In this document: piece by piece, positions 34,592 to 61,585 of the stretch
Position numbering within the stretch: the stretch's first letter is position 1
Layout of the letters: each line of letters starts with the position of its first letter
Source of the DNA: Yuukianura sp. NJ FZ-2021
Lineage: Eukaryota
DNA length: 64,000 nt
Assembly (NCBI GenBank): GCA_046563655.1
Contig: CM102286.1
Span: 4,278,001-4,342,000, forward strand
Direction of reading: 5' to 3'
Made by a program: the position numbers and the translations under genes
Notes under the pieces: model-generated
What the model was told of the DNA's origin: nothing
Database searches by the model: none
Seen by the model: the letters and a program-made list of their open reading frames with translations, nothing else

Positions 34592-34820
34592 CTAAGCCTA
34601 CCTCCCTAGCTCTAGCCACAGAAATGATGAGATGAAACAATGCGAGGTTAATCGGATCATGGAGAAAGTGGATTTGGATTCATGCAAGCGAATGGAGCTT
34701 TAGGTTAGGTTTGTGCCTAACGTCTGGGGTCTATCTGTCAGTCTGTCTTCAAGTTTTGTGATGACTCTTCATTAATCCGAAAACCATAGAGGTGTCATGG
34801 ATACGCTCTCTCATTAATTC
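34592..34820 (+). repeat. Diverged inverted paralogous non-coding element (partner ~62395-62636)
   Basis: Core AGATGAAACAATGCGAGGTTAATCGGATCATGGAGAAAGTGGATTTGG is shared exactly; surrounding blocks (TGTGATGACTCTT, TGTCATGGATACGCT) align with gaps. Confidence 0.85.
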
Positions 34821-35445
34821 TGGTTCTGGAAGTGTGTAGATTTGGTTAGTTTAAATCTAAGGCATTAATATCACGTCTCACGTCACCTTTTACTATATTT
34901 GAGCTTTCTTCAATTCAGGCAAAAACTGCAGGTTTTCAAAAACAAAATAAAATGTTTAGAATAGAAATATTAAATAATTAGATTTTCGATATAATTTAAT
35001 TTTTCAAGGGCTTTCTCCTCCAAAAATAGCCAACAGGCAATATGGTCCAAGGTTGATTCGTTTAGCGTTGGCGTTTTTCGTTCATACACAAATCTTGTCA
35101 CGTTCTCAGTCCAACCCCAATGTAATCATTTTTGACCCCACCCTGTTCCCCTTAGTTTATAACCATTCATTTAAGAGATTGGAAATGCGGAAGAAGGGGT
35201 TTGACTTTGGTAGCAGACAGAATCAAGTGGGAGAAAGAAGATGCAGTCAGAATTCTAATTGAAGTTTTTGTCTTATTTCGTAATAAACACTTACTTCAAA
35301 TGTTACGACCACACTAGGAAGCATGGGTGGGGGAAAATTGTGGCAGAGATGAGGATCTTATATGTTCATTTTGGAATGGAGAAAGTTTGACTTGAAGACT
35401 TGACTTTTTCCAAGTATTAAATAGAAGAAGACTTCATTCTTTCCG

Positions 35446-35777
35446 ACTTCCTCCAGGCCATCATTAACTCCTTCTGAAAACAAGCCCCTGCTGTAACTTC
35501 CCCTCCGAATCCGGGTTTTCCGGTGTGCTTGGAGGTGGCGGGTATTTTCTTTTAGGGAAGAAAGTGGTGCGTAGTTACAGTTTGGTGAAGTTTATTCTAC
35601 GGATGGATGGGTGTTATTCTTCCAGTCACTTGGTTTTAGCTCCACTGGGAAGACTTGGGCCTAACCTCTTAGTATGGAAATAGTGTCTCATAAATGTGTG
35701 GACGTGGGGTCCTAATTAGCACCTACAGCCACTCCAACGCACTAAAACTCACTTGACGTTAATGATGTACTTAACAC
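35446..35777 (+). repeat. Inverted repeat 1, copy in B intron 1 (partner 61255-61585)
   Basis: ~330 bp reverse-complement match with only a handful of differences; flanks unalignable by eye. Confidence 0.95.
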
Positions 35778-37156
35778 TGAATTATATCCTCGGTGAGATA
35801 GGAGTCTCTATCTTTTTAGAACGAAAAATTGGCTCTGTTGCTGCTATGAACATTTCAAATTGCTTATTTCATATAAAAAAAAATAGAAGGATTTTTGCAA
35901 ACCGTTTGTGTTTAAAGTTGATTTGCGATTTTCAATGCTAACAATAACTCTCAAAGCATGTTCAACAGTTAATATCGAAAGTACGAAAGAAACTGTGTTT
36001 AACTCATATTGCATGATTGAAGGGAATTGAATGTAAATGGGGATGCACAAATGGAGTAAGAATTTGGATGATGGCGTGGCTGTGGGTGGTTTAGTGGATT
36101 TAAGTTGCTGAGATCTTTTAATATAAATTTGAAAAGTGCATTGAAAAATGCTATCAAGAGGGCGGGGTTGCTTTCTCCCATTTCAATATCTGCCAGAATT
36201 CCGGGGCAAAAGTAAGAGGGAACACGGAACCTTTGTAAGAAAAGTGCATGTATATTCAAATAGAAATTAACTTTCTCCAAAAGTGCCACGAATGTATTGA
36301 AGTTTGTCATGAACTCTGGGCAACTTATGCACATTCCAAGAGTACAACAACATTATTTCTGATTCTGAACTGCAGAAAATAATTAAAATTAAACCGTAAA
36401 TGAACATATTTAAATTAGTTTAGAAAATAACTCATGCTTAACGAATACTGCACCGTGTATTAATTAAGTTTTCTCCATCACTGTAATGGTACTAGGTATT
36501 CAATTGGAATTTCATAGTGCTGATGGAGACAATAAAAACACAAAATGATTCTCTTTAGAAAAATGGGTATAAAAATTTCTCAAGAAAGAAACACAAGCAA
36601 AAGAGCGCTCGGGAGAAATGACATTCCCGCTTGTTATTTACGGATTTTCGGGGAGATAGGACGAGCGACTTATCGGATTCTAGGATTTGGACAAGGAACG
36701 CCTGAGAGGAAATGTTTTTATTTCCCGTAGAAACACTTCAAAATCCGGTTCAGAAATAGGAACTCAATTGGATCCACCAAATTCCAAAGACTTTCTCTCC
36801 TAAAATCGTGTACGTTTCTCTCAAATTTGATTTAAACCTTTACTTCATTCCTGTTTTCCAATCCTATCCTTCCCTCGCTTTCCAAGCATAACAGTGCCAG
36901 CAAAGAACCGTCATCGAAAAGAGAAAGTTCCCGTCAATTAGGTATCCTTAGCCGTTTCAACTTCGCCCACTTTTATATTTCGTTTAATATTCCTTTTGCA
37001 AGCAATTTCAACAACAAGTTTTGCTAATATTCGTACTGCCTGATACCAAAATTGAACTTACAAAAAAATCAGGCGAGAACTAATCTATCATTGGAAATAC
37101 GTAAAAATAGATTGGTACTTGAAGTAAACTTTTCATACGTTTGTAAATGGATGTTT

Positions 37157-37470
37157 TTGAGTGAGATTGAGACAGTTGCAATCATTTCCCTTTTACTTTC
37201 TTCCAAGTCAAATATTTGACTCATTCCAAAACCAATATTAATTTTCTGGAGAGCCACATAGACTGAGGATTGGAGTAGAGAAGGAGTGGGATTGGGTGGC
37301 TGGATGGATGAAATGGGAAACTGTTTGGTTGTGGGAAAACGGCGCTTTCCTTTTAAGTAACTGAAGGGAGAAAGTCATTGGGTGGGAAATTGGCAACTGC
37401 CGCCTTTCTCCATTGTCCCTCCACTCTATTATCCTTATGGCTTCATAATACCATCATCATCATCAACATC
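37157..37470 (+). repeat. Inverted repeat 2, copy in B intron 1 (partner 58488-58803)
   Basis: ~315 bp near-identical reverse-complement match; the ORF track shows the same peptide MALQKINIGFGMSQIFDLEESKREMIATVSISLKN at both sites on opposite strands. Confidence 0.95.
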
Positions 37471-39387
37471 TTTGTAACGGAAAGGTTTTAACAATAAGTT
37501 CTGTCAGTTGACCCCCATCTACAATCTACATCATCTTCATCATCACTTCGTATTGTTGGAGAGATTTGTGGACACTAGGACCAACGACCTGTGACCGGGA
37601 AGTATCGACTAAAGTATTGAAAACTTCTTCCTGGGTTATTTTTGTGACTTTTTATTGGTAGAAACGTGCTAAAAAGTTTTGCAATTTCTTTTACATATCT
37701 AGCAAAGAAATTTAGCGACTGTAGTTTTCAGAGCTCGCTTTCTCTGAATTTCGTGTTCTTCGTGCCAAGGACCAATTTTCCCTCCAAATACATACAATCC
37801 GTCATTCTAATTATAGTCCTCAGCTCAAACTGTTGTACGCTTATTGTTTTCTTTTTCCTGGTGCTAAACTTGCATGACAAGTTGAATGACCAAAAATAAA
37901 ATCCAACAATATTTCTTTAAATCATGTTAGATTAGAGTGTCACGATCAAAAAGTCGCGTTTCGAACATTGGCGGAAATACTCTTCTAGCACGACAGTCTA
38001 GCACTCCACTTTCAAAATCCATTCCCAAAACCATTTCTGAATTCTAAAAAGAACAAAAGGATAAAAATTCAAAAATCCAATTTTCACTTTAGTCTAACGT
38101 TGTGCAAAGTTTAGGAAACCTAGATAAAACAGCAACGTCAACATCGACGTACCAAAAAGCTATGAACTCTGGCGTGAACTTTTCATTCTAAAATGGCAGA
38201 TTGGCGTTGCCTTGCCTCTGGCCCTCTTACCTCATCCTTCCAATTTTCTTTGAGAGCCCGTAACCAAGGAGAATTCTAAAATGTTAGCTTAGGTTAGAAT
38301 TTTTGAAAAATGGATAAGGAATATAGAATGGCTCCTGCCTCTGTCAGTTGAGGATCAAGGTTTTAGCTTCCATTTTGAGTAGGACGATTATAGGAAGCAA
38401 TATTGGACTGACATGAGACGGCTGAACATGACACTTCGTGGATACGATGAGAACTACGTGGGTTATTCCTGAGAAGAGCAAAAGCCAAAAGTAAATTGCA
38501 AAATCATAATATCAAATTCCATGGCATCTTTAACAGCGGCAATAAAAGTCAAGTATTAAGGAGAGCCTGACTTACAAAATTTCCGAAGCGGAAAACTGAA
38601 AAGGAGAACTTTCAATTTTTTTGCTGAACCAAAAAATTACTTTTGCGAAGTGTCATTGACATTCACTTTTGAACCCGAGGCCCATCAATGTAATTTGGAG
38701 TATATGTGAAACAGTAGGTTTCATGTTCTTGTCGTTTCCGAAGATGCGGATGTCGCTGTTGGAAATTTAAATGAAATTTGAAAGATTAAAAGTAAAATGC
38801 ACAAAATCGAATCTCAGCTGGAGTTTTCAATTCAATATTTTTAAAAAGTCGTTTTTAAAGCAGATATCATGAAGTATTCGTTTTCACTCTGAGCTTTGTT
38901 CCTTCGGCTCAAGACGTATCTTGAACTTTTGGGCTTAAAGTATGTCAGGCATTTTCCTGCATTGCAACGTTTGCTTTTAGAAGATTGGGGTCAACATTTT
39001 GACGTAAAATATTCATTGTTTAGAAGCCTCAAATGCTTTCCTTAAATTTTGAGCCTTTCTTGCAAGACGTAAATTCAAACAATAACAGTAACACCAAACA
39101 ACTTTGGTCAATGTGACAGTGACATAAAAGCACTTTGCTAATCATAAACCCGATCTCACACTGCCATGGTTTATTATATTACTGCTTTCACTAATTTCCT
39201 AAACCACTATATAACCTTTAGTTTTAAGAAGAACCTATTTTTGTGTAATCTTGCGGTGTTCTGAAGTAGTGTAAGACTCTAGTTGTTAGCATATCGACTA
39301 GTTAAAAACGTACAAACAATTTTAAGAAATTTGGACTAAAGATTTATAATTATTTATAATTATTGTGTTGTTTTTATCGTTTTACAG

Positions 39388-42300
39388 TTTCAAGTAAAGG
39401 CATTAGGTCAACGGACCTCATTTCTACAGATCAACCTCGATTCACAACCAGAGGCGAGACGCACACTGTCGTCAATGGAGAAAGTGTCATTCTACCCTGC
39501 GAAGCTGAAAATCTTGGTAAATTGTAGTTCAATAGCATTAGCAAAAAGGATTTTGATTTTAACTTGATTTACTTTTAGTATTGCCGAAGAAATTGTAAAT
39601 TAAAGTTTTTTAAATTTCTTCTCAATTTGCTAAAATTGCCCATTGCACGAACATTTAAATTCAAGCTCCGACTAAAACATTATCAAAGTAAAAATCAATA
39701 ACTAAAAATATCATTTTCTTTCCGTTTTTTTTTCATTTTGGTTGTTTAAAACGACGCTTTCTTTAAAAAAAAACGGTGAATATTCGTTGACAAGATCAAA
39801 CGGGGAGATTTTTCTTTCTGTTTTGTGTTTACTGGAGCAAGGAGATAAGTTGCCTTTCCTTCTACTTTCTCTTTAAAACCCACTACATCATTATACTTTA
39901 CAGAATAAAAGAAAGTACGTTTCCGTTTTTCTTTTCTTTTGAATAGCAGTTGTAACGACAAGTTCAATAGAAGGGCGAAGAGCAGTGAAAGCGACAGGAG
40001 AAAGGAGCAGGTGGAAGGCAGGAGAAAACGCCATTCCGCTTTCACCCGCCCTTAAACTAAAAATGGACAAAAGATAAGACAGCCAAAATAAATAAAAGCA
40101 AAGAGGCAAGATGAATCAGGGCTAGAAAAGAGTAAAAAGAAAAAAAAAAGCGAGCGGACGTTGCTACTTGGAAGCGATCACAAATCTCACTAAATTTGTT
40201 ACACAAAAAAAACATTTCTTTTGAATTCAAAGCCCATCGAACTGTTACGCAAGTTAAATACGTTGTTTAAAAGTGAAAGCAACTTTCTTTCTTTTTGTGT
40301 TGCTCACACAGCAGTCTTTTTCTACTTTGTGTCCACAACTATTTGGCAAGTTACTTGGATTTTTGCAAAACTTTGCAAAAAGCTGCCAATGATAATTTAG
40401 TTTAAAATAATACAGCGGAAAAAGTCAAATCTGCAAGTATTTGACATTGGTATGGCTATTTTCCTTTTTACTAATCCACGCGGGAGCCGAAACCCAAAAC
40501 CCGGGAGATAATCCAAGGTTAAGAATGTTTGTTTTGCTTTTGATCTGATAAACAACGCAAATGTCAAGGAGAAAAGTCAATGCTAATAGAAGGGTTAATA
40601 TAATTTTCTTAGCTTCTGCCTCCTTCACTAACTTAAGATTTTGTTGAAATAAGACACATGACTCTAGTTGAGATCTTGACTGGATCAAGTAAAAACAGAT
40701 GCGCCACAGCGTTTTCTAAAACAGGTTTAAACTTTATTTTCTCTTATCTCCACGATTCGTACAGAAAAGAGAAGGCTATGTCGTGAAAAGTGAGCGTGAC
40801 GTTAAGAGAATCAAGTTTCAAATTCTGTTACAACAATTTTTAGACGACTACAACATCGTGTTGAAACGCACGAATTCCATTTTGGGTACCATTTAAAAAA
40901 TGAATCAGCTCTGATTTCTTCTTCTTATGCTTTTAACTTTTTAGACCCATTTACTATTGTTTGGAAACGAGGCAACGTCGTACTCACGGCTACTCAATTA
41001 AAAATTACACGAGATCCACGGTTTGAACTTGTAGATGGCTACAATCTCAAAGTGACCAACGCTACTGCCAAAGATGGCGGCCAATACGTTTGTGTAATCA
41101 CCACTTCTGATATGACGGAACAAGTTCACATGTTAGAAGTCCTAGGTAAGCTTTGAATTCACTCAAATTCAAAGAAAAGCTCGAGTTTAGCATTATCAAT
41201 TTGGAGAAATTCTGTTTCAAAACAAATTGGAAAACTCCGGGAATGTAAATTTCATAGTTACATAATGCAATAGAATAACAAAACTGAAATTGATGGAGAT
41301 AATCGGTGTAAGATAACATAAAAGATGAAAATCTTGCAGTGAAAGTATTCCGAGTCAACATTGCCATGTACGGAAAGTTTAAAGATACCCACTCTGTAGA
41401 GTGAAGAGAGCTAATTTAAACTTTTTTTTTGTTTGCAAAATTTAAAATTTGAATTTAAAGTGTCAGAAAAGTTTACTAAAATGAAAATCGTAACTCATTT
41501 TTAATACAGAGAGAATAAATTAATCCTGTTAAACGGGAAGCTTTGGGTATAATTTATTACCGTTGAGGTTACCGCCACTTTCTTCGCTGTGCCATTCTGC
41601 AGAAGGTCTTATAGTACTTCTGTGCCCAACAGAAGAAACCTTGCAGAATCCACCCAAGCACGTATGGCATACGACTCTAAACTTGTGGCCACGGCTAGTC
41701 ATCGCCTTGAATCATCTTGCCCATAAAATTGTTCCTGTGTTCCATAATAACGCCTTCCCTTGCGGTCGTCTATTTTCGAGTTCAAGAGCAGGAGTTACAA
41801 AATTTTGGGAAAAAAAAAGGTTCTGCGCCAAAACCCAAAATTCTGCTAGTCCTGAATTTACGTAGTTCAATAGCAAAAAATCGCTCTTCAGAGCTCGAAA
41901 GTTGGCAAAAGTTAGACAAACACACGTCAAAGATACGAGGAACGCGACGGAGCTGGAGGAAAAATTGTATTGACGGTGCATACTAGGACCCTGGGGAAGA
42001 TTTTGGTAGTCGTACGGGTGAAAGTCCTGTGTGTGCATTATTATTTATTTATGGTAATAAATGTTAGTTCTCTGAAGCACTCAAGTGTTCCTGTACTCAA
42101 CATTTTGGGATGGTTGAGGATAGGGCAGAAGGAAGCGACGGAACAGAAATTTAGCCAAGAACAAATTGATATTTATTCCATTTGACAGTTCCTCGCGGTT
42201 GGTTTAGCAATTACTTGAGAAATCGCTGGAAAGCGTAAAAAGTCAGATAAAAAATGAATACATTTTCAAAGGATTTTTTGGGTACGGAGCGTGGCAACTT

Positions 42301-45300
42301 TTTTAGGAAAACTGTAGCAGTGGAGAGGAAGGGACGCTGATTTTGAGAAGCGCGCTAAAGGGAATGAGGCTTTATTCAGTGAGCCAATCGGAAATGATAA
42401 ATGACTTTTTCCACTTCCCCTAATTTTTTTAACGCCGTTCTCCTGTTTTTGTCTTTTTTGTTTATGCTTCAGAAGCCTTTTTATTGCCAATTTAAGCAAA
42501 GAATTCATATTTTTGACAATTTTGGGGTACTTAAATTCAAGACTTGGTGAAGTATCCAAAAATTACATTAAAAACATTAGATTGACGAAAGTCAATTTGA
42601 ATTTCATAGTTTTCACCAGGTTAAAAATTTTCCCCAACACAAATTCGTTTTAGTGGGAGGTGAAACCGAGTGAGAATTTTTGAGAAAGGAAATGAAATGC
42701 CTAATTTTCAATTCTCACTTTTAGTTGAAATTTTAACCCTTTCAAAGTGCAGGGTCGTAACTCGATTAGAGATCTATCATTTTGAAAATGTAATTTCGGT
42801 CGGTTTGTTTGCAGTTCCTCCGAGTGTCACCATCGAATCTATCAACGGTTATGTGACCGTCATCAAGGGAGACACAGTAACACTCAAATGTCGCGCCAAC
42901 GGAAATCCTTCGCCCTCCATTCGATGGACGCGCAGAGTGAGGCTCTATTTGAATTTTATTCAATTCAAAATGCTTCCCCCGTGGACTAATTTCAGTTTTT
43001 GAAAAATGTTTTTCAGAATAACTTGCTACCGGGCGGAGAGCAATCAGCCGAAGGGAGTAGCTTCACCATTCAGAAAGCTGATAGGTACATGGCTGGAATG
43101 TATGTATGCAGTGCATCCAACGGAGTTGATTCTCCTGCTACTTCAGTAGTCGAGGTCAAAGTTCACTGTAAGTAGCTTCAAAATTACTGTAAGTTTGTGA
43201 ATTTTTTGTAGAATTTAAAATTCTCCACTTTTGATGTTCAAGAAACTTTGTTATAATAGCACCATGGGATTTACAAGTATAACATCAACATTTTATTGCA
43301 CGCAATGAAGTTGAGCTGCGTTTAGATGAACTGAACAGTGTTTCGGTTGCATAAAGCTTGCTTCTGACATGACAGCGACAGAAGACGGATCCAGTCAGTC
43401 AGTTTTTTGAAACTGTTTTGCCAGGCTTTAGATTGTGTTGCATCTGTAGCTGTTTCTATTATTATTGCAAAAGCCATTTCCTGAAATGCTGCTTGCTTGG
43501 ATTCAGAGGAATGCCAAGATTTTATTTGAGTGTCAAGATGACATGATAAGCTCTCGGGATACAGAGGCACTTCCTGTGACATTGATGTTGAAGACTTCAT
43601 TATCCACAGATGAAGTACGCATAAGACCATGTCAGATTTTTAATATCACATGCTAGGATTGTACTGCCGCCAAAAGCAAACCTGACATGCTTAAAAAATT
43701 ACAACTTTCTTGCCATTAGTTTTCTAATTTCAGCCTGAATTTTTAATACATATTTTACTAAATTCGAAAATTTTCTAATTTCCTCATCTCTATAAATTCT
43801 AACAATGTAAAATCCAACAACTAGGAGTCAATCTCATAAAATGAAATCAAAATCCTGGTTGCTTTCATAGCTTCTCTAGTTTGGTTTATAAAAAATGTGG
43901 GGAATGTTTAGTTTAGGCATGTAAACGGGATTGAGCAAAAGTTGGTAAAAAGTACAAGGAGCAGTTAAAAGTGAAGTGTTTAAGTTGAAGTGGGAATTTA
44001 AATTTTAAATTCCTCTCTCAATTTCTTTGCTAAAGTTTTAAATTTGGGCTCCCGGGTATTTTTTTGTGGCGAGGGTAATGCCCTTTGAGAGTTCTGGCGA
44101 GACTTGAGAAGTCAAGGATTCTTCATTGACTTTCTCCTCCACTTTCACTCATCTTCACACTCGCCTTCCTTCTTACACTCGAACAACCTGAACAGCATCT
44201 TCCAAAAGCACAAGGCTCAAGTGAGTCTCAAACATTCTTACATGCCTCTGTGTGCTCAATTTTTTGCAAAAATATTTGTTTTGTAATGAAAATCTCCACA
44301 AAAATCACAAACTCAGACTTATTCAGAAAAGCTTTCACGAAGTTATATTCAACAAACTCTCTAAAAAACTTTCATCACGGGAAAAGTTTTTCTTTAGTTT
44401 ATTTATTTTTTCCAAATTTGTAAAAGTTAAGGTGCTTCATCTTTATGGTTTTGGTGGAAAGTTAACGTGAATGAGACAGAATGATTATCTATCACCTTTG
44501 ATTTCTTTTGTGTGATCTGTACCTATCCAATCCAGATGCTCCAGAAACTCTACTGTTCTTTATAGTAATGAAGTCATTTCTAATTTTCACTTCCAGATCC
44601 ACCTGAAATTGAAGTGGAGAAAACTTGGGTTCATTCTGAAGTGGGCTACGACGTTGAGTTGGTCTGTGAAATTCAATCACAACCACCACCAATTGTAAGT
44701 TAGAGCATTGTTTTATGATTTTTTGTTTTTCAATTTAAAAGAAAGTGAAATTACACTTTTTCATCCAGAGCTGGATGCAAAAATGGTTTGTTCAAGATAT
44801 CCAAACTTTATGAAAAATTTTAAATCTTGAAAACTTTGGTGCTTTCTGATGGCCGCTAGCGCTTATGAAAGTTGAGAGAAACAAATGCTGGATGACGTGA
44901 AAAGTGAAAGGTCAATTAATAGGGATCTTCTGTCTTCAGTCTAATGAAGAGAAGTGAATCTCGTCTAGTGAAAGCTCCTGCTCATTAAGATCACAAACTA
45001 AAGCACACAGCATCCCTATCTTAGCTCAAACAATTAATTCACTCCCAAATGAGTTGTCACGCTAGCCATATCAGACTCTGTTTTAATATTCCAAATTTAC
45101 TTTACACAGTAGCAACAGCGAGCAAAAGCAATTTGTTGGCCAAGAGGCATGTAAATATAAGGACTTGATGTTGATTGCTATAGATTGAAATCAACGAACC
45201 TTGTTATAATATATTTTGTGACTTACTATAATATTTTTTGTGCTACTTAAGGTACGGTGGTTCCTGGATACAATGATTGTGGACAGTTATGGTCGTCGCA

Positions 45301-46297
45301 TAATAGATCAACGTGATTCTCGTCATACGCTCAAAATTCGTAAGGTTATGCCAGGAGATTTTGGAAACTACTCTTGCGAAGGAGTAAACAAGCTGGGCAA
45401 ATCGCGTAAATACATTGTTTTATCGGGTGAGTACGTAGTAGGAGAAAGTTTAGTAATAAAACTGGATTGAAACTGTATATACCCCGGTCGTTCTTTTTGT
45501 TCATACATACAATTTATTAAATTAAATTCAACTGCCTAACGATTTCTAAAATGTTCGAAATGCTTAATGTCAGTCTTTTTTGGCTCATTTTGTTAGGTAA
45601 GCCAGACCGTCCAGTAATTCGGAGCCACTCGGACGGACAATTGAAGGATGCTTACAACATCATTTGGGCTGTCGAGAGCTTCCCACCGATTTTAGAGTAT
45701 AGACTCATCTACCGAAAAGCCAATGTAACTTCCTACAATTTCCGGACTACTTTTCAGAAAGAGAGGTCATAGGTCAAGTATCAAACGGAGCTTAATTGAT
45801 GTTTACTCTCGTTAGGTGAATAATACGCACGACATGGCTGGTTATTGGAACGACTTAATCTTGCCAACGACAGAATCGCCTGAGGCAGTGACTTCGTTAG
45901 CGGCGCCTTTGTCTGCGTCCACTCTTCACGTTGGTTCATACCACATCAGGAACCTGGAGCCGCAAGGAGTTTATGAAGCTCGAGTGGCGGCAAGAAACAA
46001 ATACGGATGGACAAACCCGTCAAAAGTTTTTACTTTCAGTACACAAAGAATCCGTAAGTGACTTTCTCCTTCCATATTGACCTAGTGTACATACCAATAC
46101 AAAGCTCAAACCCATTTGCTCAAAAATTTGAGCAAATCAGTAGACATTAGCAAAATAAAAATACTGTTATTTTTTCGATAGAGGCAGAAAGCCAAAACCC
46201 GGAAATTGGGGATGCATCTTCGTTTACGAGAATCATGAATCTGCTACTTTTTATAAAAACATTCTGCAAATTGTCTTTTTTGTACTCGTTTTTTTGA
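39388..46297 (+). CDS. Ig superfamily adhesion protein copy B (diverged paralog), exon 2 to end
   Basis: Exons 39388-39516, 40945-41145, 42815-42936, 43017-43167, 44597-44694, 45252-45426, 45597-45724, 45816-46053, 46182-46297 (TGA). Same lengths and phases as A/C except the FN3 exon is 27 nt shorter, the 45-nt micro-exon was not found and the last exon differs. All Ig cysteines retained, no stops. Last exon QAESQNPEIGDASSFTRIMNLLLFIKTFCKLSFLYSFF is less certain. Confidence 0.9.
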
Positions 46298-47866: not shown

Positions 47867-50800
47867 TCAAAGTGGAATGTTTCCCAAGAATACTGCAAAG
47901 AGAAGCAGAAATCTGCAGAGTGAAGAGGAAGAATGGACTGATTCGGCGTAGTTAGTTTTAGCTGTTATTCCTAAGTCACGGACTTCCGGTTCTGGAAAAA
48001 TTTTGAAAAATATTTCTCAGCAACATTTCTTGACGCATTGCGTTCACTTGTATTTGACTGTAACCATTATGCAAAAAATCACAAAACTCATTTAAAGCTT
48101 ACCTGTTAGCACGTCGCGCTGCGGTGACGATACAAACGGGTAGTGATCTAAAAGCAACAAGAGTTGTGAAGTAAATTTGCTCTGTCGTAAAACTAAATCA
48201 AGGTCAGTATGGTTCTTGTCACAATCCCAAGGTTACGGAGATGGTCACGTCTCCAAGTCAGTTTGTGAAAATGAAGAAGTGAAAGTATTTACCTGTTCTT
48301 CGTGTGTGAAAGGAGTAGAGTTCTGATGGGTGAGCCCATCCGTATTTGTTTCTTGCCGCCACTTGAGCCTCATACAGTCCTTCTGGCTCCAGGTTCTTGA
48401 TGTGGTACGACTTGACATGGACGATGGACGCAGACGAAGGGGCAGCTAACGAGGTCACCGCCCGAGGCACCCCCACGCTCCCCTGGTAGTACATGTACTC
48501 TGTCGCAGGCAGAACCACGTCGTTCCAGTCACCAGCCATCTCGTAAGTGTCGTTCACCTAACCAACCAACAACAATTATAGGTCAGGTTAAGTGCAGTTA
48601 CAACAGTTTGACCTTTGACCTCTATGCAGTTTCTCTTACGTGTGCTTTGCGGTACAGGAGTCTGTACTCTGTAATGGGTGAGAAGCTCTCGACAACCCAC
48701 GTGATGTTGTAAGCATCTCGGAGTCGCCCGTTCGGGTCGCTCCGGAAAACAGCTCGGTTTGGCTTACCTAAGAATGCAGTGCCATTTTTCACAAAGTTTT
48801 CATTTACAAATTTGAAATTGCAGTGTTTTGGTTTTGTCATTTTGTTTTTACCTGAAAGTTCAATGTGACGCTTTGTTTTGCCCAGTTTATTGTCTGCTTC
48901 ACACGAGTAGTTGCCAAAATCAGAGGGCTGTACTTTGCGAATTATGAGTGAGTAGCGAGAACCGCGTTCTTCTACGAGACGCCGATCAGTGGTGTCCAAA
49001 ATCATCGTATCTCTGAACCACCTCACCTAAAAATTCAACAACATTTTTGATTAAAGTGAAACTATATTTTTTAAACCCAAAAAGATTTATTGTTGCTACA
49101 AAATCTACATATGCTAAACCTTCCTCCTTTTTGCAGACTTTTCTGTAAGCTGTAATTGACGGAAGTGAAACTGACTTTACTGTAACTGGATTAATCCAAA
49201 TGAATTGAATACTTCCCTTGCTAAACTGCCATTTTACACTTCTGCAAGCCTAACAGATTTGTTTTGGGGGTTGAATAATATTAGTCCTAAAGGTGCTAAG
49301 GGCTTAAGGTAGAGGCCCTATTTCACATGAAGTGCCATAAATCTTTTAAAACAAATTTATGTTCTCCTGCTAAAGCTGAAACGCAAGTGGAACGCATAAG
49401 TGTGTTAGCAGGAGTTGTTTAGTTTATGTATGCCGTAACTGAGGAAAAACCTACCTCTCCAAACCATGTTTTCACTAAAACTTTGTTACAACATGGAAAT
49501 GTTTTTTAAGTTAATCCTGTGGGGGGAAAACTTAACTTCAAACTAAAATCTCTCCAAATTCCAAATTTAGCTGGCGATGAAATAATTTGAGCGCTTTACG
49601 TCAGTCGAAATTTGAAACGGACTGCTTTTTGCCCATTTCCCGCCCAAAAAGAGGATACATCATCTTTAGTCATTTTCATCCCTACGATTAATTATACGAG
49701 TTGTGATGAGACTCAGGAAATCCTAACAAATGACCCTGCGAAAAGCCTCCAGAACTTTCACTCTCTATTTGCTCAAAGAGAAAATGCCTTTGGAAGCTTT
49801 GGAAAGTGGAGATTGTGGAATTATGAAGCTCCAGAACCACTAATGATCAAAAATTAATGAATCCAACTTCAACTTCTCAATTCTAGTACTTCAAAATCTA
49901 CAACTTCAAAAGTCAGAACTCAAAAGTCAAAGTCCATCATGAATAAATTCAAACCATAATCAAAATCCAAAAATTGTCTGTCTGTGAGATCGAATCCTGT
50001 CGGTCACTCGCAATAAAAAAAGTGAATGAAAAATTGCCTATGAGCATAAGGAATTTGCTATTTCCTTATTCCCTTTCAATTTCATTCCATGCTGATGAGT
50101 CTGTTCCCATGAGGTTGGTGAGCTGTAAACTCTCCGTAAAAACAAGCAGTGGACCTGCCTTTCTCATCAGCATATGTAACGTAACTGTAAAGTGACGTCC
50201 CGAGTTGTCTTGCTTATCAACTTTGTATTAGCGTTTTTCCCGATGTGTTTTTCCTAATACCTAGAGTCACCTTCTCTAGCCGAATGGAAAGATAGTAAGC
50301 AACTCACAACGCGAAGTAGTGTAAGGCCCTGTAAGGGGGGACTACCTCTCGTACCCATTCAAAAAAAAAAAAAATTCAATATTGAAGGCACAAAAATAAA
50401 TAGACTAAAATTTGAGTTGGACTAGAATTAATTTTGCTTGCAAATAAATTATAAATGAAAAACAACGCCTTTCTAGAATGATTAATGACTGGAATCCTTT
50501 GGTGTCTATCTTTGCTAAAAGATCTGACAGATCAGTTTGGATTTCTCAATCAATTTGACTCAAGTCAAGGAGATACTAAAGGGTGCACTGTAGCAAAATT
50601 TAGGTTAGGCCGACTATGTTTTAATGAGCAGAGCTCAGTCAGAGGAAGATCACTTGTCTTCATTAAGACAGAAGACAGGAGCTCCATTTAATTGACCTTT
50701 CACTTTCTACACGAACCTACATTTGTTTTAGCAGCTTTCCTTGCTAAAGAACTAGGTTAGGTTAGGACTTCCAACAAAGTTGGACTAGGAACGAGCAGAA

Positions 50801-53800
50801 GGAGAGGAAACGAAGCTGGATTTAAATTGACTTCCATTTGATTCTCTTGACTTGGTTCTAATGCTACCCCAGTGACCAATCCAATTCTGAGCGGCGTATC
50901 AACTCCCAAAACTTCCAACTTTCTCTTTGTTTTCTCAAGAGTTTGCCGCTTTTTTTCAAAATTTAAAAATGACTCAAGTTTCTCTCGTTCTTTTTTAAAA
51001 AGAAGTTAATAAAATTAGTAGTTCCAAGGAATGAGCTTCAAATAAAATTTTAATGAAGACGTTTATGTCTTTTCTAAGCTAATGATTTCAGTTCTGAATT
51101 TCCGGAAAGTCAGAAATGGGCAAGTGCCACAATGGGAGAAAGTAGCTATTTCTTTCTCCGCTAAAATGTTTTATTCATCTTCATTTGTTAAGTTGGGCCG
51201 AGGGAAACTTCATCATCATTAAACACGCTTTGAGTCACAGAGGGAAATGTATTTCATTCTTCACAGTGTTCCTCAAATCCCTTGTCCAGCCTTTAATGTT
51301 TCAGTTTTGGAGTCAAATGGAATTTTTGGGAAGTCAATTTTAAAAAAAAACTACTATTGCGCAAGTTGTGAACTGAAACAAAATTAAACTTGAGTTACTT
51401 ACAGAAGCTGTTGGATCTGAATGAACAATGCATGCCAATTCAGCCTCATAGCCCTCTCCAGAATGTACCCAGCCTCTTTCCACGTCAATTTCAGGTGGAT
51501 CTAGAAGTGAAAATTAAAATTTAGCACCAAAAGTTTAAAATTATTTTTAGAAACTATAAGCATAGATGATTAAACCAAGCTGTACGCACGGAAAGTTATA
51601 TTCTTCATACCTTCATTACTAGAAACAAATTTAAGCTTAGGCTGGAGTGATCTTTGGTATAAGTAAAAAGTGTAGTTCATATCGAGACAGAAGTTTTTTT
51701 CAGCGAAAAAGTTATTTTCACTTCAGTTTTTTTTTCTAGTCCGGTGGGAGTAGCAGTTTTGTGCTTGTGTTAGAACAGTGGAGAAAGTCGCGCAATGAGT
51801 GAGACCTTGGAAGAAAGTAAACGTGGGATACTCAGTTTCCGTCTTCTTGCAGCTCGTTAACGATATTACTCTCACCAAAGTTTCTCAAGAAAAGTATACT
51901 TGAGAGACCCAATCTAAAATTTAAATTCCCACTTCAGCAGTATTTTACAACAATTTCTTAGCCAACTTTTTCAATTCTTCATCTCCCAACATCTCGAGAA
52001 GTTTCTTTTACTAAATTCATTTTGGCAACCCTCAAATTAACATTTTTCATTCCTCACTCTTGGTCCACAAAAGTACAACCTTCAAAAAAAAATTGGAGAG
52101 TGACAGTAACTTCAATACTCCAACAGAGTTCCTTGTTTAAACAAACGTGTGTAAAGTATTCCAAAGTTTTGAAACAAAAAACTGCATCCTCGTTTTTTTT
52201 CTCAAAGCGCAAACTTTTCTGAATCTCGTTTTTCGCAAGTGCGGGAAATTTTGAAAGTGCCAATTTCAAAAAATATTTGGGCGCAAGATGTTGCAAAAGA
52301 CTCAGGATCATCGCGTCTTCAAATTGCTTGAAAATTTTCTCCAGCTGATATCACTATTTTCTCTTTTCGTAAATGATAATTTCTTTAGTACTTTTGGAAA
52401 TAACCTTCTAAATGAGTTTCTAAGGAGCGTCTGGCAACAGTGATAGTTTTGTCAACGACTAGCATTATCCTGTGTCGCTGAGTCTTAAGCATTCTTAGTT
52501 TGTAATAGCCACAGCTAATGGAAAGTGACACGACAAGAAAGCAGGAGAAAGTCTATTAAAAGGCGGCATTCATTAACGTGCCAGAAAGTGTTAACTGGAA
52601 TTTTCAATGCAAAAACATAACCGTTATTTCCTTGGAGCTCAAATGCCTGCGATACGCCAAATACTCCGTAATGTAAAACTTTATTATAAAATGAGTTTCC
52701 GGCGTTCACTGAGCCTCACCGTTGAGCGTTGTGAGAAACGATAACGTTCCTGACCTACTTTTTGTGCAGATTACCTTCGGAGGTAGGCCAGTTGCCAACT
52801 TATTTATGTGAAACAAGAACCCGCATAGAAAATAGTTTATGGCTAACTGCATTCTAAATACTTACATTGAACTTTGACCTCGATTACTGAAGTGGCAGGA
52901 GAACCAACTCCGTTGGATGCACTGCATACATACATTCCAGCCATGTACCTATCAGCCTTCTGAATGGTGTAGCTACTCCCTTCGGCTGATTGCTCTCCGC
53001 CCGGTAGCAAGTTATTCTGAAAAACATTTTCAAAAACTGAAATTAGTCCCCGGATAAAGCATTTTGAATTGAATAAAATTCAAATAGAGCCTCACTCTGC
53101 GCGTCCATCGAATGGAGGGCGATGGATTTCCATTGGCGCGACATTTGAGTGTGACTGTATCTCCCTTGATGATGCTCACATGACCGTTGGCAGAGTCGCT
53201 GGAAACACTCGGAGGAACTGGAAACGAACCGACCAAAATTACATTTTCAAAATGACAGATCTCTAATCAAGTTACGACCTTGCACTTTCAAAGGATGAAA
53301 AAAGCTAAATTAGAATCGAAAATTAGGCATTTCATTTCCTTTTCTGAGAGTTTAAATTTTTGCTTGTATTCAGAGTTCATTTAGCTATCTAGCAAAATCG
53401 AAAACTTTGGCGGGTTTATTTGCAACAAAATTTGATTTGCAACACTAGTGATCTAATATAAACTCAAACGCCGTCTGATTCCACGCCGGTGCGAGATCTA
53501 ACGTGTGTATACAAAATGCTACTCCGTTCTAAAAGTACTTCCCGCGAAAAACTTGATTTACAGCGTTATTAAAAAAGTAAGAAATTTTTTATGGTTGAAA
53601 ATGATTCAAGACGATGGTTGGCCACAAGTCAAGTGTGATGCGTAATGCGTTAACGCTGAGCCATGTGGTTCCTTGTGGTGTCTACGACTTCGGATGCCAG
53701 GCTACAGAAAGTTAGAAATGAACACAGGAGAAAATAGGAACCTCAAGAGCCCATAAATTATTCCCGAAAGATCCCCTTGAACAGGATTAATTTATTCTCC

Positions 53801-56293
53801 GAGTATCTAAAATGAATTACGATTTTCATTTTGAACTTCTTCTAATGCACAAATTTAAACTTTTTCAAAAGTTGGAGTTCAAGATACTCAAATTTTTATA
53901 ATAAAATGACCAAAAAAGCTCATCCTCGCCCTCACTTCATCATTTAATTTTTTCAAAGTTTAAAAAATAATTATGCAAGCGATTTGAAGTTTGTTGGTAA
54001 GATAAGGTTAGGAATGGCAAATGCATTTTTGGTAATAGTAAGAATGTAATATTCTCGTAATTGTGAAGCGCGTTTTCAGAAACCGTGGTGCAAAAGCCTC
54101 TTTTCTGAAATTGTCTAACATTTCTGTTCAAAATTTAATTTGCGAAACTGAAAGAGGAGCCAAGGAAAGCGTTAATTCCATCCGTTTCAAATCTTGAAAT
54201 TGTGGTTTGGTGAAAGTGTCATTTCTCTCACAGTTTCAACTTCCTTTTCCGTGAAAACAGTGAATACGGGTAGCAGAATTAAATTTTCAGGGAAACCGTC
54301 TCATCTTCCTTAGTTTCCAAGAACCTGCTGGATTAAATTCAAGTGTTTCCAACTTGTGGTTTTGAGAATCGTCTTTCTGTTTCTAACGATATTCTAGAAC
54401 AATTTACATGAACGAGGCATTAAATGTGTCTATCTCATCACCTTCTTCGAAGTTAATGAACTCTTGGTCCAATATCTTAACACCTACTTTCACCATTTTA
54501 TGCCGAAAATGATGAAAAAGACGTTTCAAAATTTAAATTCCTTGTGACACTTCCAAGTTTAAGTACTTTGAATTTGAATCTTAACTTAGCATACCTAGGA
54601 TTTCCAGAGTGTGAACTTGCTCCATCGGGACATAAGTGCTGAGTTGGCAAATGTAATCTCCGCCATCTTGAGTTCTTACATTGGACAGCTTCAGGTTGGA
54701 TCCATCCACGAGTTCGATTCTTGGATCTGGTGTAATTTTTAGTTGAGCAGCCGTGAGTACGGCGTTGCCTCGTTTCCAAACAATAGAGAATGGTTCTGAA
54801 ATGTTAAAAACAAAAGAGAAGTCAGAGTTAATCCTATTTTTCAATAGAGTCAGAGGTCATTCCTTCGGAAGTAATCGAATAATGTGAGTCCAGCTTTATA
54901 AGCTTTGTTTTAGGAAGTGAAAGTTTTTTTTGCAGAAGGCAAGTAAGTTTCGTGAAGAATAGAATGATTGTAATCTCAGCTGGTTCGCTGGACTTCCTAT
55001 TGAAGCTCATGAATCTTACTTCGACAGGTTCTTAGGAAAAGAAAGCCTTAGCAGACAAAAACTACAGAAATCATCCAAGCCTTTTTGTGTCTATGTTAAG
55101 ATTTCACGCGGAGATTGGATTTAGGGACAAAAGATTTCGCAAACTGCGGCGTCTTTTTCAAGTAGGTATTTTCTACCTTTCAGTTCTAGCAATAGCATAT
55201 GAAAACGCTGAAGGTATGAAAGTAGTTTCAGTCAAATCATTTGCAGCAAAACATAATGGACCTTATAAACACTAAACACCTCAAAAATGAGAAATTGAAT
55301 GCAAATTTTCTTGCACAATTTAAATAGGCGAGAAATTTTGCCAAAAAATGCAGCTTTGTCTAAAAAAAATCATATTCTGCCTTACGATTTTATTGTGGAA
55401 AAATCTTTGGCGTAGTTTGCTAAATTTTTCGATTTTTTTGAAACTTTGAATTTGGGTCGAAACATTGTTTGAAAAAATATAAAAAGTTGATACTGCAGCA
55501 TGTTTAGTACATACAAATAAATGTAGGAGAGTTTACATTTTGCAGTGAAAACAGAACATAACAAAATCCCGTAAATCCTTAAAGCTCAAATAACAAGTAC
55601 TGGGAACAAGTAGTTGTTTACTTGCGGAATCGGAAGTTAACGCCCGTAAGGTAGCGCTTTTACATGCATTTGAAAAAACAACGTACGGAGGAAACAGTAA
55701 GCCAAATGGACAAGGCGGGAGTTTTTTTCTTCTCTTTTGAATTTTATTTGATTTAGACTGAGAACCCATTTTATAAGAAGGTTTCTACAAGTGGATGACA
55801 GTTTTGGACCCAAATTTGAAAGAAAAAATGAACGGGAATGAGCTTTTTTCATACTTTAGTTCTGAAAATGGATGGAAGCTAAATTGAAAACTGGGAAAAC
55901 TTTGACACTAAAATTCAATTTTGAGAAACTAGCTCATAAATATCGAAATGAGGTTGGAAAGGGTAGGCGTAAAAGTTCTTTTTCTTTTGAAGGTGAAAGT
56001 CAAGCTGAAATTGTTTCATCCTCCCCCCGCTTTCCACTTTGTGGAGACTTCAGAAGAATAATCCTGGTGGGACTTGGAGAGAAAGTACACTTGAAACACA
56101 AAGAAATGGAAGGGGAAAGCAATTTGACTTGGGAAATTTTGTTTGTTTCGATTGGATGACGTACTTAGATTTTCAGCTTGGCAGGGTAGAATGACACTTT
56201 CTCCGTTGACGACTCGGTACGTCTCGCCTCTTGTTGTAAATCGCGGTTGAGCCGAAGAAATGAGATCCATAGATGCAATGCCTTGCGTCGAAA
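47867..56293 (-). CDS. Ig superfamily adhesion protein copy C (3 Ig + FN3 + GPI-like tail), 5'-partial
   Basis: Minus-strand exons 56293-56165, 54795-54595, 53217-53096, 53016-52866, 51500-51403, 49026-48852, 48767-48640, 48557-48293, 48147-48103, 47991-47867 (TGA). Internal exon lengths are identical to copy A. C-terminus ..ESVHSSSSLCRFLLLFAVFLGNIPL* fits a GPI-anchor signal. Confidence 0.93.
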
Positions 56294-57150
56294 CTGCAAA
56301 ACAAAAAAAAAGAACAAATTTAGAAAAAAAAAGTCCAGTTCGCTATATACAGAAACTTTTGATTTTGTCTTATGAATTTTGAAAAAATCAAAAAAAAATT
56401 TAGACTTTGGTAGTAATTGCATCAACTTTTAATCAGTATTTTGTTTTGACAAGGTTTGTTCATAAACTTTCTTCAAGGCATGCTAATGAAAATCCCATTG
56501 TTAGTGACGGAGCGTTTTGAATTTGCCAATTTGCTGAGAATCTGATTCTGATGACATGATGAGATTGCCCAGTTTCAGTTTATAATGCATGGCTTCTGGA
56601 AGCGTGTGTAGTATTACGGGAAGAGCGCACGAAGTGACAACTCCTGAATATTTCATGCCAAAATGTCAATGCCTTTAAATGAGATGCATTGATCTGAAGT
56701 GTAGTGAAAGTCTTCTGAGAAAAGCATCAGTGCTGCGCAAAATCGCGCGACGTTGCTTCTATTTCTATTTCCAAACATGTCGAGGGCGTAGACACGCATT
56801 CAAAACCCAGTACGCGTTGAATGAAACGAAAACAGCAAAATTGTATTTGTAATAAAAGCAAATGAAACGACATCAGCAGAAAAGTTTTAGCATTTTGATA
56901 AAAACGAACTTTGGCCCAGTTTTGAGTGAATATCTAGTATGAATACATCAGGCAGTAGATAAATCATTATACATGTAACATAAAATCCAAAATTTGAATA
57001 GAACAAAAGACACTCATCAAACGACCTTGTATTATTCGATTGTTCAGAAGTGAAACTTTACAAATACCGTACATAAAGGTTAAATTTTAAATTTTATTTA
57101 CTATTCTGCATGAGAATCACAACCAGTTGTTGTAATGTGTAGTTGAAAAC

Positions 57151-57480
57151 ATGAAGGCTTTCATAAAATCAGCTTTTCCAATCATTATTTTGCTCGGACT
57201 TGGCGCAACAGGATTTATTTTTGAACGGAACTGCACAACCTATCAAGAATGCATCTTCAACAATGGCATTGTAAAAGAAAGTATATATCTACAGTGCGTC
57301 AACGGAAAATGTGCTTGCCAGGAAGCACGGGACGTGGATCAAGCACTACCGACATTCCACCCAATAGACATAAGTCAAACATGTATTGTTGGGACTGGAG
57401 CTCCATGTGGAACTGTAGAAGGCATAATTATCGTTTGTGAACCGCATAGCTCACATTGTAGGAAAGGAAAATGTGCCTAA
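57151..57480 (+). CDS. Small secreted cysteine-rich protein (109 aa, 10 Cys, EB-module-like), intronless, antisense within the presumed intron 1 of copy C
   Basis: AAACATG start; hydrophobic leader MKAFIKSAFPIIILLGLGATG; CxxxxxC..CVNGKCAC..C..GAPC..C..CRKGKC pattern; ATTAAA about 90 nt after the stop. Confidence 0.8.
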   Translation: MKAFIKSAFPIIILLGLGATGFIFERNCTTYQECIFNNGIVKESIYLQCVNGKCACQEARDVDQALPTFHPIDISQTCIVGTGAPCGTVEGIIIVCEPHSSHCRKGKCA

Positions 57481-58487
57481 GTGACAAGGTCACACTTTCT
57501 ACACCGAAACCACAACAGAAATAATTTGCTAAATTGACTTAGAATTCAGTGTTTTAAATCATATTTGAAATTAAAACATTTTCATGCATTCAGTAAACCG
57601 TTTTTCAACATTCTATTTGCTGCGATTCTTCCATTTTAGTTTAGTTTTTGGCGAAAACCGTTCTGTAGACCCGCGTATTGATTTGCAAAAACGGATGAAG
57701 ATGCGTTGAACTGCGGCGGGCAGCGGAAGGACGTTCCCGTGTATCCTACTGTTAAATTTATGTACCTTCAAGCAGAAACCTAGGCCACAGAATTAGGAGA
57801 ACTTAAGCTCACCGACCAGCAGAACTACATAAATTCCCGTTTCAAAACTACCACCACTAACCCATCTAAAACCCATCCACTTTTCCCTGGAAAGTTTCAG
57901 AATTAGGAGAAAGTGGAAGGAACAGCCTTGAGTAAGGACAGGAGTCGTGGTTTCTGTTTCTCCTGCCACTGTTTCATTGTAATCTGAATCGGAACTCCCT
58001 AGAGGCAAATCTGGAAACTGCAAATACTGAATGCAGATCCGATTCGCCGGTGAAGTAATGGACCTGACCTACCTAGCAACGAAATTTCAAACTAAGGCAG
58101 AATCAAATTCGCTTTTGTTTTTGACAACCACCCTCAGGTGATTTCCAGATTAACACATATTCTAATTCTACACAGTTGAAAGCTATATAGAAATGCTAAA
58201 TTGGGTAAAATTGGATGCTGGCAACACAGTAGCAGACCAAACCTCATACAAACCGAAAAACTCGAAAGAAACCGGAATTGTTGAAACAAAAGAAAGTAAT
58301 CATGCAAGTGACCCTCCCCTAGTTTTTCCGTAGCGTCATTTGTCTTTCTAACAGTTTATGACTATTCGGGAGAAAAGGCAGTAGCTTTATAGAGTGAAAA
58401 TGATGAAGATGATGAACGGGTAGGGTTCAGGGTCGAAGCGACAGCATTTCTTTGGTAAAGTGTCTCCCTTATTTTCGTTTGCAGAGT

Positions 58488-58803
58488 GATGTTGATGATG
58501 ATGATGGTATTATGAAGCCATAAGGATAATAGAGCTGAGGGACAATGGAGAAAGGCAGCAGTTGCCAATTTCCCACCCAATGACTTTCTCCCTTCATTTA
58601 CTTAAAAGGAAAGCGCCGTTTTCCCACAACCAAACAGTTTCCCATTTCATCCACCCAGCCACCCAATCCCACTCCTTCTCTACTCCAATCCTCAGTCTAT
58701 ATATGGCTCTCCAGAAAATTAATATTGGTTTTGGAATGAGTCAAATATTTGACTTGGAAGAAAGTAAAAGGGAAATGATTGCAACTGTCTCAATCTCACT
58801 CAA
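58488..58803 (-). repeat. Inverted repeat 2, copy upstream of C exon 2 (partner 37157-37470)
   Basis: Reverse complement of 37157-37470. Confidence 0.95.
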
Positions 58804-61254
58804 GAACTTTCTCTACAAAGCTCCTCCAGTACTTTTCCTTCTCATATTTCTTAAGTCTCGTTCTGAACCTAGAGTTCTCTCTGCGGCTGAATTTTGTAGT
58901 GCCACTGTATGCTATTCTCAGGTTGGAAAAACGATCCAGACAAAGTAAAGTAGTTGCTGGAGCCAGCGTAAAGTATTCTTGAGAAAGAAATGGGAGAAAG
59001 AGGGAAATATGAATTTGGAGGGACTTTCCATAGAACCGAGGAGAAAGACGATGAAAGACAAATGCAACGGAAGAAAGGAAGTAAACACAACCCCAAATGT
59101 ACTTTAAACATTAGTCATCCACGAGTAGTATTTGAGCAAAATGGCGGGGTTAGAAGACATGGGGGGAGGTGTTCAGTCTACCACGGAAACACGAACTACT
59201 ATGAAGTTGCTCAAATATTAATTTCTAATTACTTAAAATAACTTTGGACAAGTCAAAAGCGAGGCCTAAAGTCGATAAACCATACAGCTTTCTGAACAAA
59301 TTTTTAAAAAGTTCTTAATTCGCAGGAAAGGAAGTCTAAATTAAAATTAGAAAACCATTAGCATATTTCTTATTTATATTCACTCTTTGCAGAAACGAAA
59401 AAAATTTGGCGCGCTATGGCATGTATTTTAAAGTAGTCCCGGTTGAAAAAAAAAGTTTAAAAAAAGCCTGAGTGACAGGAGTCGCTTCTTTTGAAAATGT
59501 AAAAAGAAAAGAAAAGTGTTGGAGACATTGACGGGAGAAAGTTGTGTTTGAATCAAGTTGCAAGGAAAAGTACATGATTTTAAAAACAGAAAATTATAGA
59601 GGATTCTGCAGTAGTAGAATCCAATTCAGTTCCATTTTCAACCGGATTTTGAAGTGGGTCTGTGGGAAATGAAAATATTTTCTCTAAGGCCTTTCCATTC
59701 TAAATCCTTCACAAGTTATATTTCAGTCATCTTCCTTCGAGGAAATCCGCATAAACAAGAAAGGCGCCTAAGAATCATCATTTCATTCAACTCTCTTTTT
59801 GACAAATTCCAAACACGGACACATGTGCTGAAAATATAAAGAGAAACGTCATGAAATCACACAACTGCTTTTTCAAAGCAAAATTTTGTTCATTATTAAA
59901 AAAAACTACTCAAAATTAAAAATTCAAAACCAAGTTTACGACACTATAAATGTGACTCAACTTTCGCTGTAGAGCACTCTAACTTGTATTGTTCACAATT
60001 TTTTGATGAATATGGTTTTAACTCAACTTTAGAATTCACGAAAGTTGGCACTTTTTTTCGAAAATGGAGTTTTGTAATGGTGATTGCACTGAACCAAATG
60101 TAAATATTTATTTTTATGCATACGTTGGCTTACATGGGACTACACTCCACAACGCAAGTTCAACTTTAATATTATGCGTATGTCAATATTGTTTACTGCA
60201 AATCCATTCGGAATCGGGAATGGAAGTACTTTATTGAAAGCAGAAAAAACTCCTGCTTTCTAAATTCCATTTTTGGTTCTTCAAATAATAGCGTACTTTT
60301 CAAATCTATATTAAAGATCTGTAGAGTCAAAGCCCTCAAAATCACCGTGACGCACGCAATTGCAACATGTTTCTTGTTTTTCATTTGTGCTTGCATTAGC
60401 TGCACTTTCATTTACTGGAATCATGCAACATTCGATTACACTTATTTTCAAAATTGAAGTTTTGTTGGGGCGAGGTTGCACGCTTTTCAAAAAGCTTTGA
60501 TACCCATTAAATTCAACTTTACTTCTTCTGGTGACAATTGAAACTAGAAGTAACATGTTATATGTTAAACAAACTATCTTTTAGTCTAACATTTAAAGCT
60601 AACTCGGTTAAATTTATTGAGAGGATGATATGATCTGATTGGAACAAGTCTCCCCATCCTCAAATAGTAAAAAGCTTGTTGAAATAGTGATTCTAAAACA
60701 AGGAAAGCTCAAATAAATACGTTTGACATGACCTGTATTCCCCTCCATTTTCATTTTCATTACTCAATGTCTACGCAACGCTCCAATGTTTTTTGGAAAG
60801 TTCAAGTTCAAAAGAACTTTTCAATCCATATGAATCAAACACTGACTCATTGGAAACGCTGTGAGTAAACAGTGGCTGCATGCATCTCATGACTCCCGGA
60901 CATTATCATAAAGAACCGTTCGCTCTGACTTAATGGTCCGCGTTCAAACAAGCACCAAGCTCGATTTTTAAAATTATGTTTAGCTACGGCAAATACACTC
61001 TCAACTCACTCTCAAATCTAACAAGCTTTTTCTGAGAATACAATTCGAAAGCTGGCAATTTGACAGAAATTCAATTCCCAAAACTAAGAATAAAAAAAAT
61101 TCAGTTAAAAAAAATCATGAATAGCACTATTGAAAAAAAATGGAAAGAATAAAGTACGCGTGCGCTAGAAATTCCAAACTTTGTTAATTTAAAATGTTCC
61201 AAAGCTCAAGTTGCTGGAAAATACTTGAAAAATAATTCAGTGGAAGGACGCTGG

Positions 61255-61585
61255 GTGTTAAGTACATCATTAACGTCAAGTGAGTTTTAGTGCGTTAGAG
61301 TGGCTGTAGGTGCTAATTAGGACTCCACGTCCACACATTTATGAGACACTATTTCCATACTAAAAGGTTAGGCCCAAGTCTTCCCAGTGGAGCTAAAACC
61401 AAGTGACTGGAAGAATAACACCCATCCATCCGTAGAATAAACTTCACCAAACTGTAACTACGGCCACTTTCTTCCCCAAAAGAAAATACCCGCCACCTCC
61501 AAGCACACCGGAAAACCCGGATTCGGAGGGGAAATTACAGCAGGGGCTTGTTTTCAGAAGGAGTTAATGATGGCCTGGAGGAAGT
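61255..61585 (-). repeat. Inverted repeat 1, copy upstream of C exon 2 (partner 35446-35777)
   Basis: Reverse complement of 35446-35777. Confidence 0.95.

Follow-up and report, generated by a model that had tools for sequence, protein, structure and literature searches.

Are near-identical inverted repeats in the first introns of two neighbouring adhesion-type genes crossover sites at which the genes trade promoters, or do they owe their likeness to gene conversion? The question is raised by a 64,000-nucleotide (nt) stretch of the genome of Yuukianura sp. NJ FZ-2021 (assembly GCA_046563655.1, contig CM102286.1, positions 4,278,001 to 4,342,000 of the forward strand), hereafter the window, in whose own numbering all positions are given. 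This 64-kb window holds three paralogous immunoglobulin (Ig)-superfamily genes, A, B and C, of which B and C are convergent, tail to tail. The first introns of B and C share two segments, hereafter islands 1 and 2, each present in two inverted copies. We consider it rather probable that the islands are old paralogous intron pieces, likely regulatory, that have been kept alike by non-crossover interlocus gene conversion.

Two inverted islands in the first introns of genes B and C

A preliminary description of the locus had reported two near-identical inverted pairs, and repeat finding as well as self-BLAST returned both of them at the same coordinates. Genes and islands are arranged as follows:

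8293-11376 (approximate), + strand: exons of gene A
13300-13384 and 39388-46066, + strand: putative exon 1 and body of gene B
56293 down to 48270, - strand: body of gene C
35446-35777, + strand: island 1, B copy, in intron 1 of B; longest perfect run 98 nt
61255-61585, - strand: island 1, C copy, in intron 1 of C; 6 substitutions and a 1-nt indel relative to the B copy
37140-37470, + strand: island 2, B copy, in intron 1 of B; near-identical core 37157-37470; longest perfect run 99 nt
58488-58819, - strand: island 2, C copy, in intron 1 of C; substitutions and a 2-nt indel relative to the B copy

By self-BLAST, the two copies of island 1 are 97.9% identical over 332 nt (inverted, E 7e-161), and those of island 2 (37140-37470 against 58819-58488) are 96.1% identical over 333 nt (inverted, E 1e-152). 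Repeat finding recovered each pair in two parts, namely 35546-35777/61255-61486 (94%) and 35446-35567/61464-61585 (98%) for island 1, and 37258-37470/58488-58700 (98%) and 37153-37260/58700-58807 (98%) for island 2. When the copies were aligned pairwise together with their flanks, each of the four edges showed a drop of identity to background over a few bases. The right edges fall at indels, of 15 nt in C past 35777 for island 1 and of about 12 nt past 37470 for island 2, a position that would fit the ends of conversion tracts. Conversion tracts are expected to be far more alike than their surroundings and to have discrete ends, and this is what was found: 96-98% identity in the islands, against flanks that are 58-69% identical or unalignable. 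The GC content of the B copies is 46% for island 1 and 42% for island 2, versus 36% in the surrounding intron.

Two small sequence features were seen inside the islands. The 9-mer GGATGGATG is common to both (35601-35609, 37302-37310 and 61423-61431, the C copy of island 2 having one mismatch), and its three matches in the window compare with 0.16 expected by chance; it would be compatible with shared protein-binding sites, and proves nothing. Island 1 also carries a perfect 10-nt inverted repeat, CATCATTAAC / GTTAATGATG, at 35459-35468 and 35758-35767, that is 13 and 10 nt inside its ends, which could be due to chance (roughly 1 in 20 by our own estimate) or be a remnant.

The islands belong to an old collinear paralogy

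Comparison of B 33000-39600 with reverse-complemented C 56100-64000 by sensitive BLAST gave seven collinear matches. Three of these are the islands and exon 2 (80%); the other four are patches of 58-69% identity placed before, between and after the islands. These patches were the only likeness detected around the islands in this search, in agreement with the earlier remark that the neighbouring intron is heavily diverged. In gene B they are:

34530-34822, + strand: weak collinear patch, a conserved block upstream of island 1 whose core 34593-34696 is 88% identical to 62636-62530
35076-35296, + strand: weak collinear patch
35989-36137, + strand: weak collinear patch
36630-36837, + strand: weak collinear patch, a conserved block between the islands whose core 36682-36773 is 79% identical to 59708-59619

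Since the islands are arranged alike with respect to both genes, in order as in orientation, within this collinear paralogy, they are best described as ancestral pieces of a duplicated intron, and not as independent insertions. The inverted orientation of their copies then follows from the tail-to-tail arrangement of B and C.

A mosaic of identity across the gene cluster

In-frame exon segments of A, B and C were compared at third codon positions. Identity at these positions ranges from 0.51 (Ig3b) to 0.94 (Ig2b) between B and C, and from 0.56 (Ig3b) to 0.96 (last coding exon) between A and C. The lowest of these silent-site values are near saturation, though the A and C proteins are 95% identical in Ig3b. 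Two coding tracts stand at the other extreme:

10866-11376, + strand, against inverted C 48790-48270: 3' coding part of A; 97% identity over 310 nt (11067-11376 against 48270-48579), third positions 0.96
42685-43174, + strand: Ig2 tract of B, comprising the Ig2 exons, their intron of about 75 nt and part of the upstream intron; 91% identity between B and C over 490 nt, Ig2b third positions 0.94

In a sliding-window alignment, identity in the last coding exon of A and C reaches 100% over 200 nt (11116-11315 against about 48530-48330). The Ig2 exons, together with the intron of about 75 nt that separates them (9930-10294, 42685-43174 and 52856-53342), are 88-96% alike in all three genes, the intron itself being at least 90% identical in A, B and C, and B-C identity extends about 100 nt into the intron upstream of Ig2. 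Other exons of the three paralogs are 65-90% identical. The mosaic spans inverted copies that lie 10-37 kb apart.

Identity at sites that are not protected, and segments of different ages within the same gene pair, are further marks of conversion tracts, and both are present here. Because a single gene pair has silent sites and intron bases of such different apparent age, we conclude that partial interlocus gene conversion took place repeatedly in the cluster. The islands display the same short high-identity tracts amid diverged paralogs, and so appear as two more patches of this mosaic. It is the cluster-wide mosaic, including the 200 nt over which A and C are fully identical, that leads us to favour recent non-crossover conversion, which the preliminary description had mentioned as the simpler alternative to its own proposal of an invertible cassette.

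The near-identical A-C pair is the third inverted pair of this kind, and it brackets all of gene B.

The islands are non-coding

The indels that distinguish the copies, of 1 nt in island 1 and 2 nt in island 2, break every reading frame. None of the four open reading frames overlapping the islands matched Pfam (0/4). A search of the whole window against Rfam gave no match at the gathering score, and a scan of 4.5 kb gave a single sub-threshold match, located outside the islands; no tRNA was found. Predicted folding, computed for each island on either strand, was no better than that of shuffled sequences (z values of 0.03, -0.07, 0.92 and 0.07). Exact patterns taken from the island cores had no match in two metagenome and two viral scans, collections that are unlikely to hold springtail DNA. 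The islands are non-coding, and they are probably cis-regulatory modules, which would make them two candidate regulatory elements of a three-gene adhesion cluster.

Copy number and divergence in public DNA runs

No third copy of either island was found in the window, using 7-nt words and E ≤ 10. Four public DNA runs (X1 to X4, from two studies and stored as contigs) were then aligned to 34300-39600 at 80% likeness; the results hold for the contigs listed, and the depths are means per contig, not copy numbers. Island contigs stop at the island edges in all four runs (for example 35447-35777 in X4 and 37157-37470 in X1), and none spans a whole island. They are about 1.1-2.3 times as deep as the flank contigs, with values of 16.2 and 14.8 for the islands against 8.67-9.75 for the flanks in X3, and 407-459 against 187-224 in X2. 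Where loose contig ends are shown (35777, 37470 and 37153), their sequence resembles the flanks of the C copies in the reference. One X4 contig, record 29, links the end of island 2 with exon 2 of C over a length of 2177 nt and has the arrangement of the reference. On these data, the evidence that a genome has two copies of each island is good, if not final. The preliminary description had named an origin as high-copy fragments of transposable elements as something that would count against its proposal; this is not what was seen, as the window has no third copy, contig depth stays within about 2.3 times that of the flanks, and the loose ends shown match only the flanks of the C copies.

In X3, the islands carry 5 differences over 510 nt, some of which may be collapsed differences between the B and C copies, against 113 substitutions, plus many gaps, over about 3400 nt of flank. 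Beside island 1, a non-reference haplotype in X1 departs from the reference by 25 substitutions and by gaps at 14 positions over 276 nt. That the islands diverge less between haplotypes or organisms than most flanks do is only suggestive of constraint, since other flank stretches are equally conserved. As a separate observation, the runs contain a second haplotype whose difference from the reference is very uneven, amounting to about 9-15% (substitutions and gaps) in parts of the intron (35775-36450 and 34837-35041) and to less than 1% elsewhere.

Explanations for the likeness of the islands

If conversion is the cause, the islands would descend from an intron 1 shared by the duplicated genes B and C, and non-crossover conversion between the inverted copies would have kept them, or made them, near-identical, possibly with the assistance of purifying selection. 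A crossover in an island would swap the gene bodies, as a rare by-product and not as a working switch. Patchy conversion at this locus would be a new instance of an already known kind of event. Several points nevertheless weigh against this explanation. Judging from the sequences, very strong constraint alone could also account for the identity of the islands. Conversion needs homology, yet hardly any of the flanking sequence aligns; continuous conversion or constraint must therefore have kept the islands alike throughout, a protection for which this explanation does not account. The signs of constraint are themselves only suggestive, because some flank stretches, such as 37738-38682 in X2 with 7 differences over 945 nt, are as conserved as the islands. 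The regulatory role is purely something that we infer.

Constraint without conversion would mean that the islands are ultraconserved paralogous regulatory elements, maintained at 96-98% since the duplication by purifying selection alone. Between the reference and the other haplotype or organism, few stretches indeed vary less than they do, the neighbouring collinear blocks are graded (cores at 88% and 79%) as is typical of conserved non-coding elements, and both islands contain GGATGGATG in excess of chance. We still find this explanation unlikely, given that no coding exon of B and C (67-91% nucleotide identity) is as well matched as the islands are, that in exons left unconverted the silent sites are close to saturation, that the same cluster holds homogenised silent-site tracts and a homogenised short intron, and that the differences between island copies include indels. 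A role as transcribed parts, either alternative untranslated first exons with their promoters or exons of a duplicated intronic non-coding RNA, would agree with the raised GC content, with the good acceptor-like CTTCCTCCAG|G at which island 1 starts, and with the room that long first introns leave for alternative 5' exons; the lack of a conserved donor at the island ends, of an open frame kept between copies and of any structure signal makes it distinctly unlikely. Sharp borders, a size of about 330 nt typical of short non-autonomous elements and the perfect 10-nt inverted repeat near the ends of island 1 recall transposable-element fragments or ends lying in both introns. Yet that repeat is internal and not terminal, no target-site duplication is seen at the edges, only two copies exist in the window and in the DNA contigs listed instead of a dispersed family, and both islands keep their order and orientation inside the old collinear paralogy. 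The island core motifs also lacked matches in the viral and metagenome collections, which would hardly hold springtail repeats, and on the whole an origin from mobile elements seems extremely unlikely.

The last explanation, a real inversion, polymorphic or somatic, in which a crossover between island copies flips 21-26 kb so that the B and C bodies trade promoters and signal exons, depends on the first exons. All exon models of B and C were read from sequence, and those concerned are:

13300-13384, + strand: putative exon 1 of B; ATG at 13300, signal-like hydrophobic stretch, 85 nt, phase 1 end, donor gtaagg
39388-39516, + strand: exon 2 of B; first half of Ig1, 129 nt, phase 1 in and out, ag/gtaaat borders
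56293-56165, - strand: exon 2 of C; 129 nt, phase 1, starting with VSTQGIASMDL, ag/gtacgt borders

Exon 1 of C was not found within the window. The geometry on which the proposal was built stands: exon 1 of B reads as 85 nt with a phase 1 end, exon 2 is 129 nt in both B and C, and a crossover in either island pair would invert 21-26 kb and exchange the gene bodies behind their 5' parts with the phase kept. Both frames would stay open, the inverted repeats, separated by 21-26 kb, match at 96-98%, and recombination between inverted repeats inverts the enclosed DNA (PMC2583991). That paper also reports, for intrachromosomal recombination in mammals, a 20-fold drop when uninterrupted homology was cut from 232 to 134 nt, while tracts below 50 nt can recombine between close repeats in mammalian cells (PMC2583991). 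With longest perfect runs of only 98 and 99 nt, these thresholds, which are mammalian and not those of a springtail, suggest that crossover between the islands may be of low efficiency. No recombinase gene, specific site or other switch machinery was noticed. The inverted A-C pair is an equally good or better substrate, yet it lies inside coding sequence, where a switch would be senseless, which argues that such patches are by-products of conversion. We therefore regard a real inversion as very unlikely, and it is highly improbable that the islands are live crossover sites, with an inversion, carried by part of the individuals or cells, that places the C body under the B promoter and signal exon and the B body under the C promoter. 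That the inversion exists or is being used is unsupported. If it did, this would be a DNA-inversion swap between two neural-type adhesion genes in an animal, and the matter would be important only once the inversion was shown to occur.

Comparison with known systems

In the palindromes of the human Y chromosome, gene conversion takes place from arm to arm. Closer to our case, the genome of Folsomia candida has 11 palindromic collinear blocks, one of them made of Ig-superfamily Dscam2-like genes (PMC5490193); that report discusses gene conversion, gives wide Ks ranges, and does not favour concerted evolution for the blocks as a whole. The cluster resembles these palindromic systems in that inverted paralogs on the same chromosome contain segments of very high identity. 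It differs in that B and C are homogenised only in patches of 200-500 nt within old diverged paralogs, and not over whole arms. Patchy conversion within old inverted paralogs fits the picture given there of Folsomia candida. If conversion is indeed at work, the cluster would be a compact and clear case in which inverted paralogs of a springtail-like genome evolve in concert only in patches. It also calls for care in annotation, since assemblies can break at inverted patches that are nearly identical, and such patches can be mistaken for mobile elements.

An inversion polymorphism produced by non-allelic homologous recombination between inverted repeats is described for the FLNA-EMD region of the human X chromosome (10.1101/2020.04.20.051185; inversions of this type are reviewed in PMC2583991). 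As there, genes lie between the inverted repeats, and a crossover would turn round the DNA that carries them. Unlike the repeats behind known inversions of this type, which measure kilobases to hundreds of kilobases and hold long perfect tracts, the islands are 330 nt long with perfect runs of at most 99 nt.

Bacterial invertible promoters and shufflons, such as the fim switch and Hin, work with a dedicated site-specific recombinase and short specific sites. The inversion proposed for B and C would likewise reassign a promoter to another coding body, but neither a dedicated recombinase nor specific sites were seen at these genes. No animal precedent for a promoter-reassigning DNA inversion was found in the literature searched, and we know of no promoter swapping at the DNA level between receptor genes in arthropods.

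Duplicated conserved non-coding elements are retained near paralogous developmental genes. The islands are similar in being conserved between paralogs inside diverged introns, next to neural adhesion-type genes. Unlike such elements, they are more alike (96-98%) than the coding exons, a difference that favours conversion over simple retention.

Gene architecture and neighbouring features

Genes B and C share an architecture of three Ig domains and one FN3 domain. In an exon-by-exon Pfam search, I-set/Ig_3 was found on four of seven exon translations and fn3 on one, and the succession of I-set Ig and FN3 domains is that of Ig-superfamily adhesion genes with IgLON/lachesin/DIP-like architecture. 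A search of the PDB returned generic neural Ig proteins only, and the gene subfamily was left unnamed; one Ig exon, searched against longer proteins, gave no match at E ≤ 0.001.

Three blocks of A intron 1 (828-941, 7028-7305 and 7884-7961) are collinear, and similarly spaced, with blocks of the distal part of B intron 1 (14861-14969, 20529-20793 and 21319-21396), at 62-79% identity. Gene A is without the proximal region that bears the islands, and the B intron is about 18 kb longer between the distal blocks and exon 2. Since A intron 1 is collinear with the distal B intron and yet the body of A is closest to C, a past swap of gene bodies was considered as the source of the A/B/C pattern; it was dropped, as the distal intron of C lies beyond the window and the comparison is impossible. 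Two other blocks shared by B and C, 41478-41557 against 53832-53753 (84%) and 44879-44988 against 50728-50621 (79%), are without a counterpart in A at E 1e-5, and may be small exons or conserved intron elements.

Finally, intron 1 of C contains, antisense to the gene, an intronless open reading frame (57152-57478, + strand) of about 108 amino acids, cysteine-rich and with a signal-like hydrophobic start. Its match to the EB module of Pfam is weak (E 0.073, under the cutoff), and no counterpart was seen in the B intron; it may be a nested gene for a secreted peptide.

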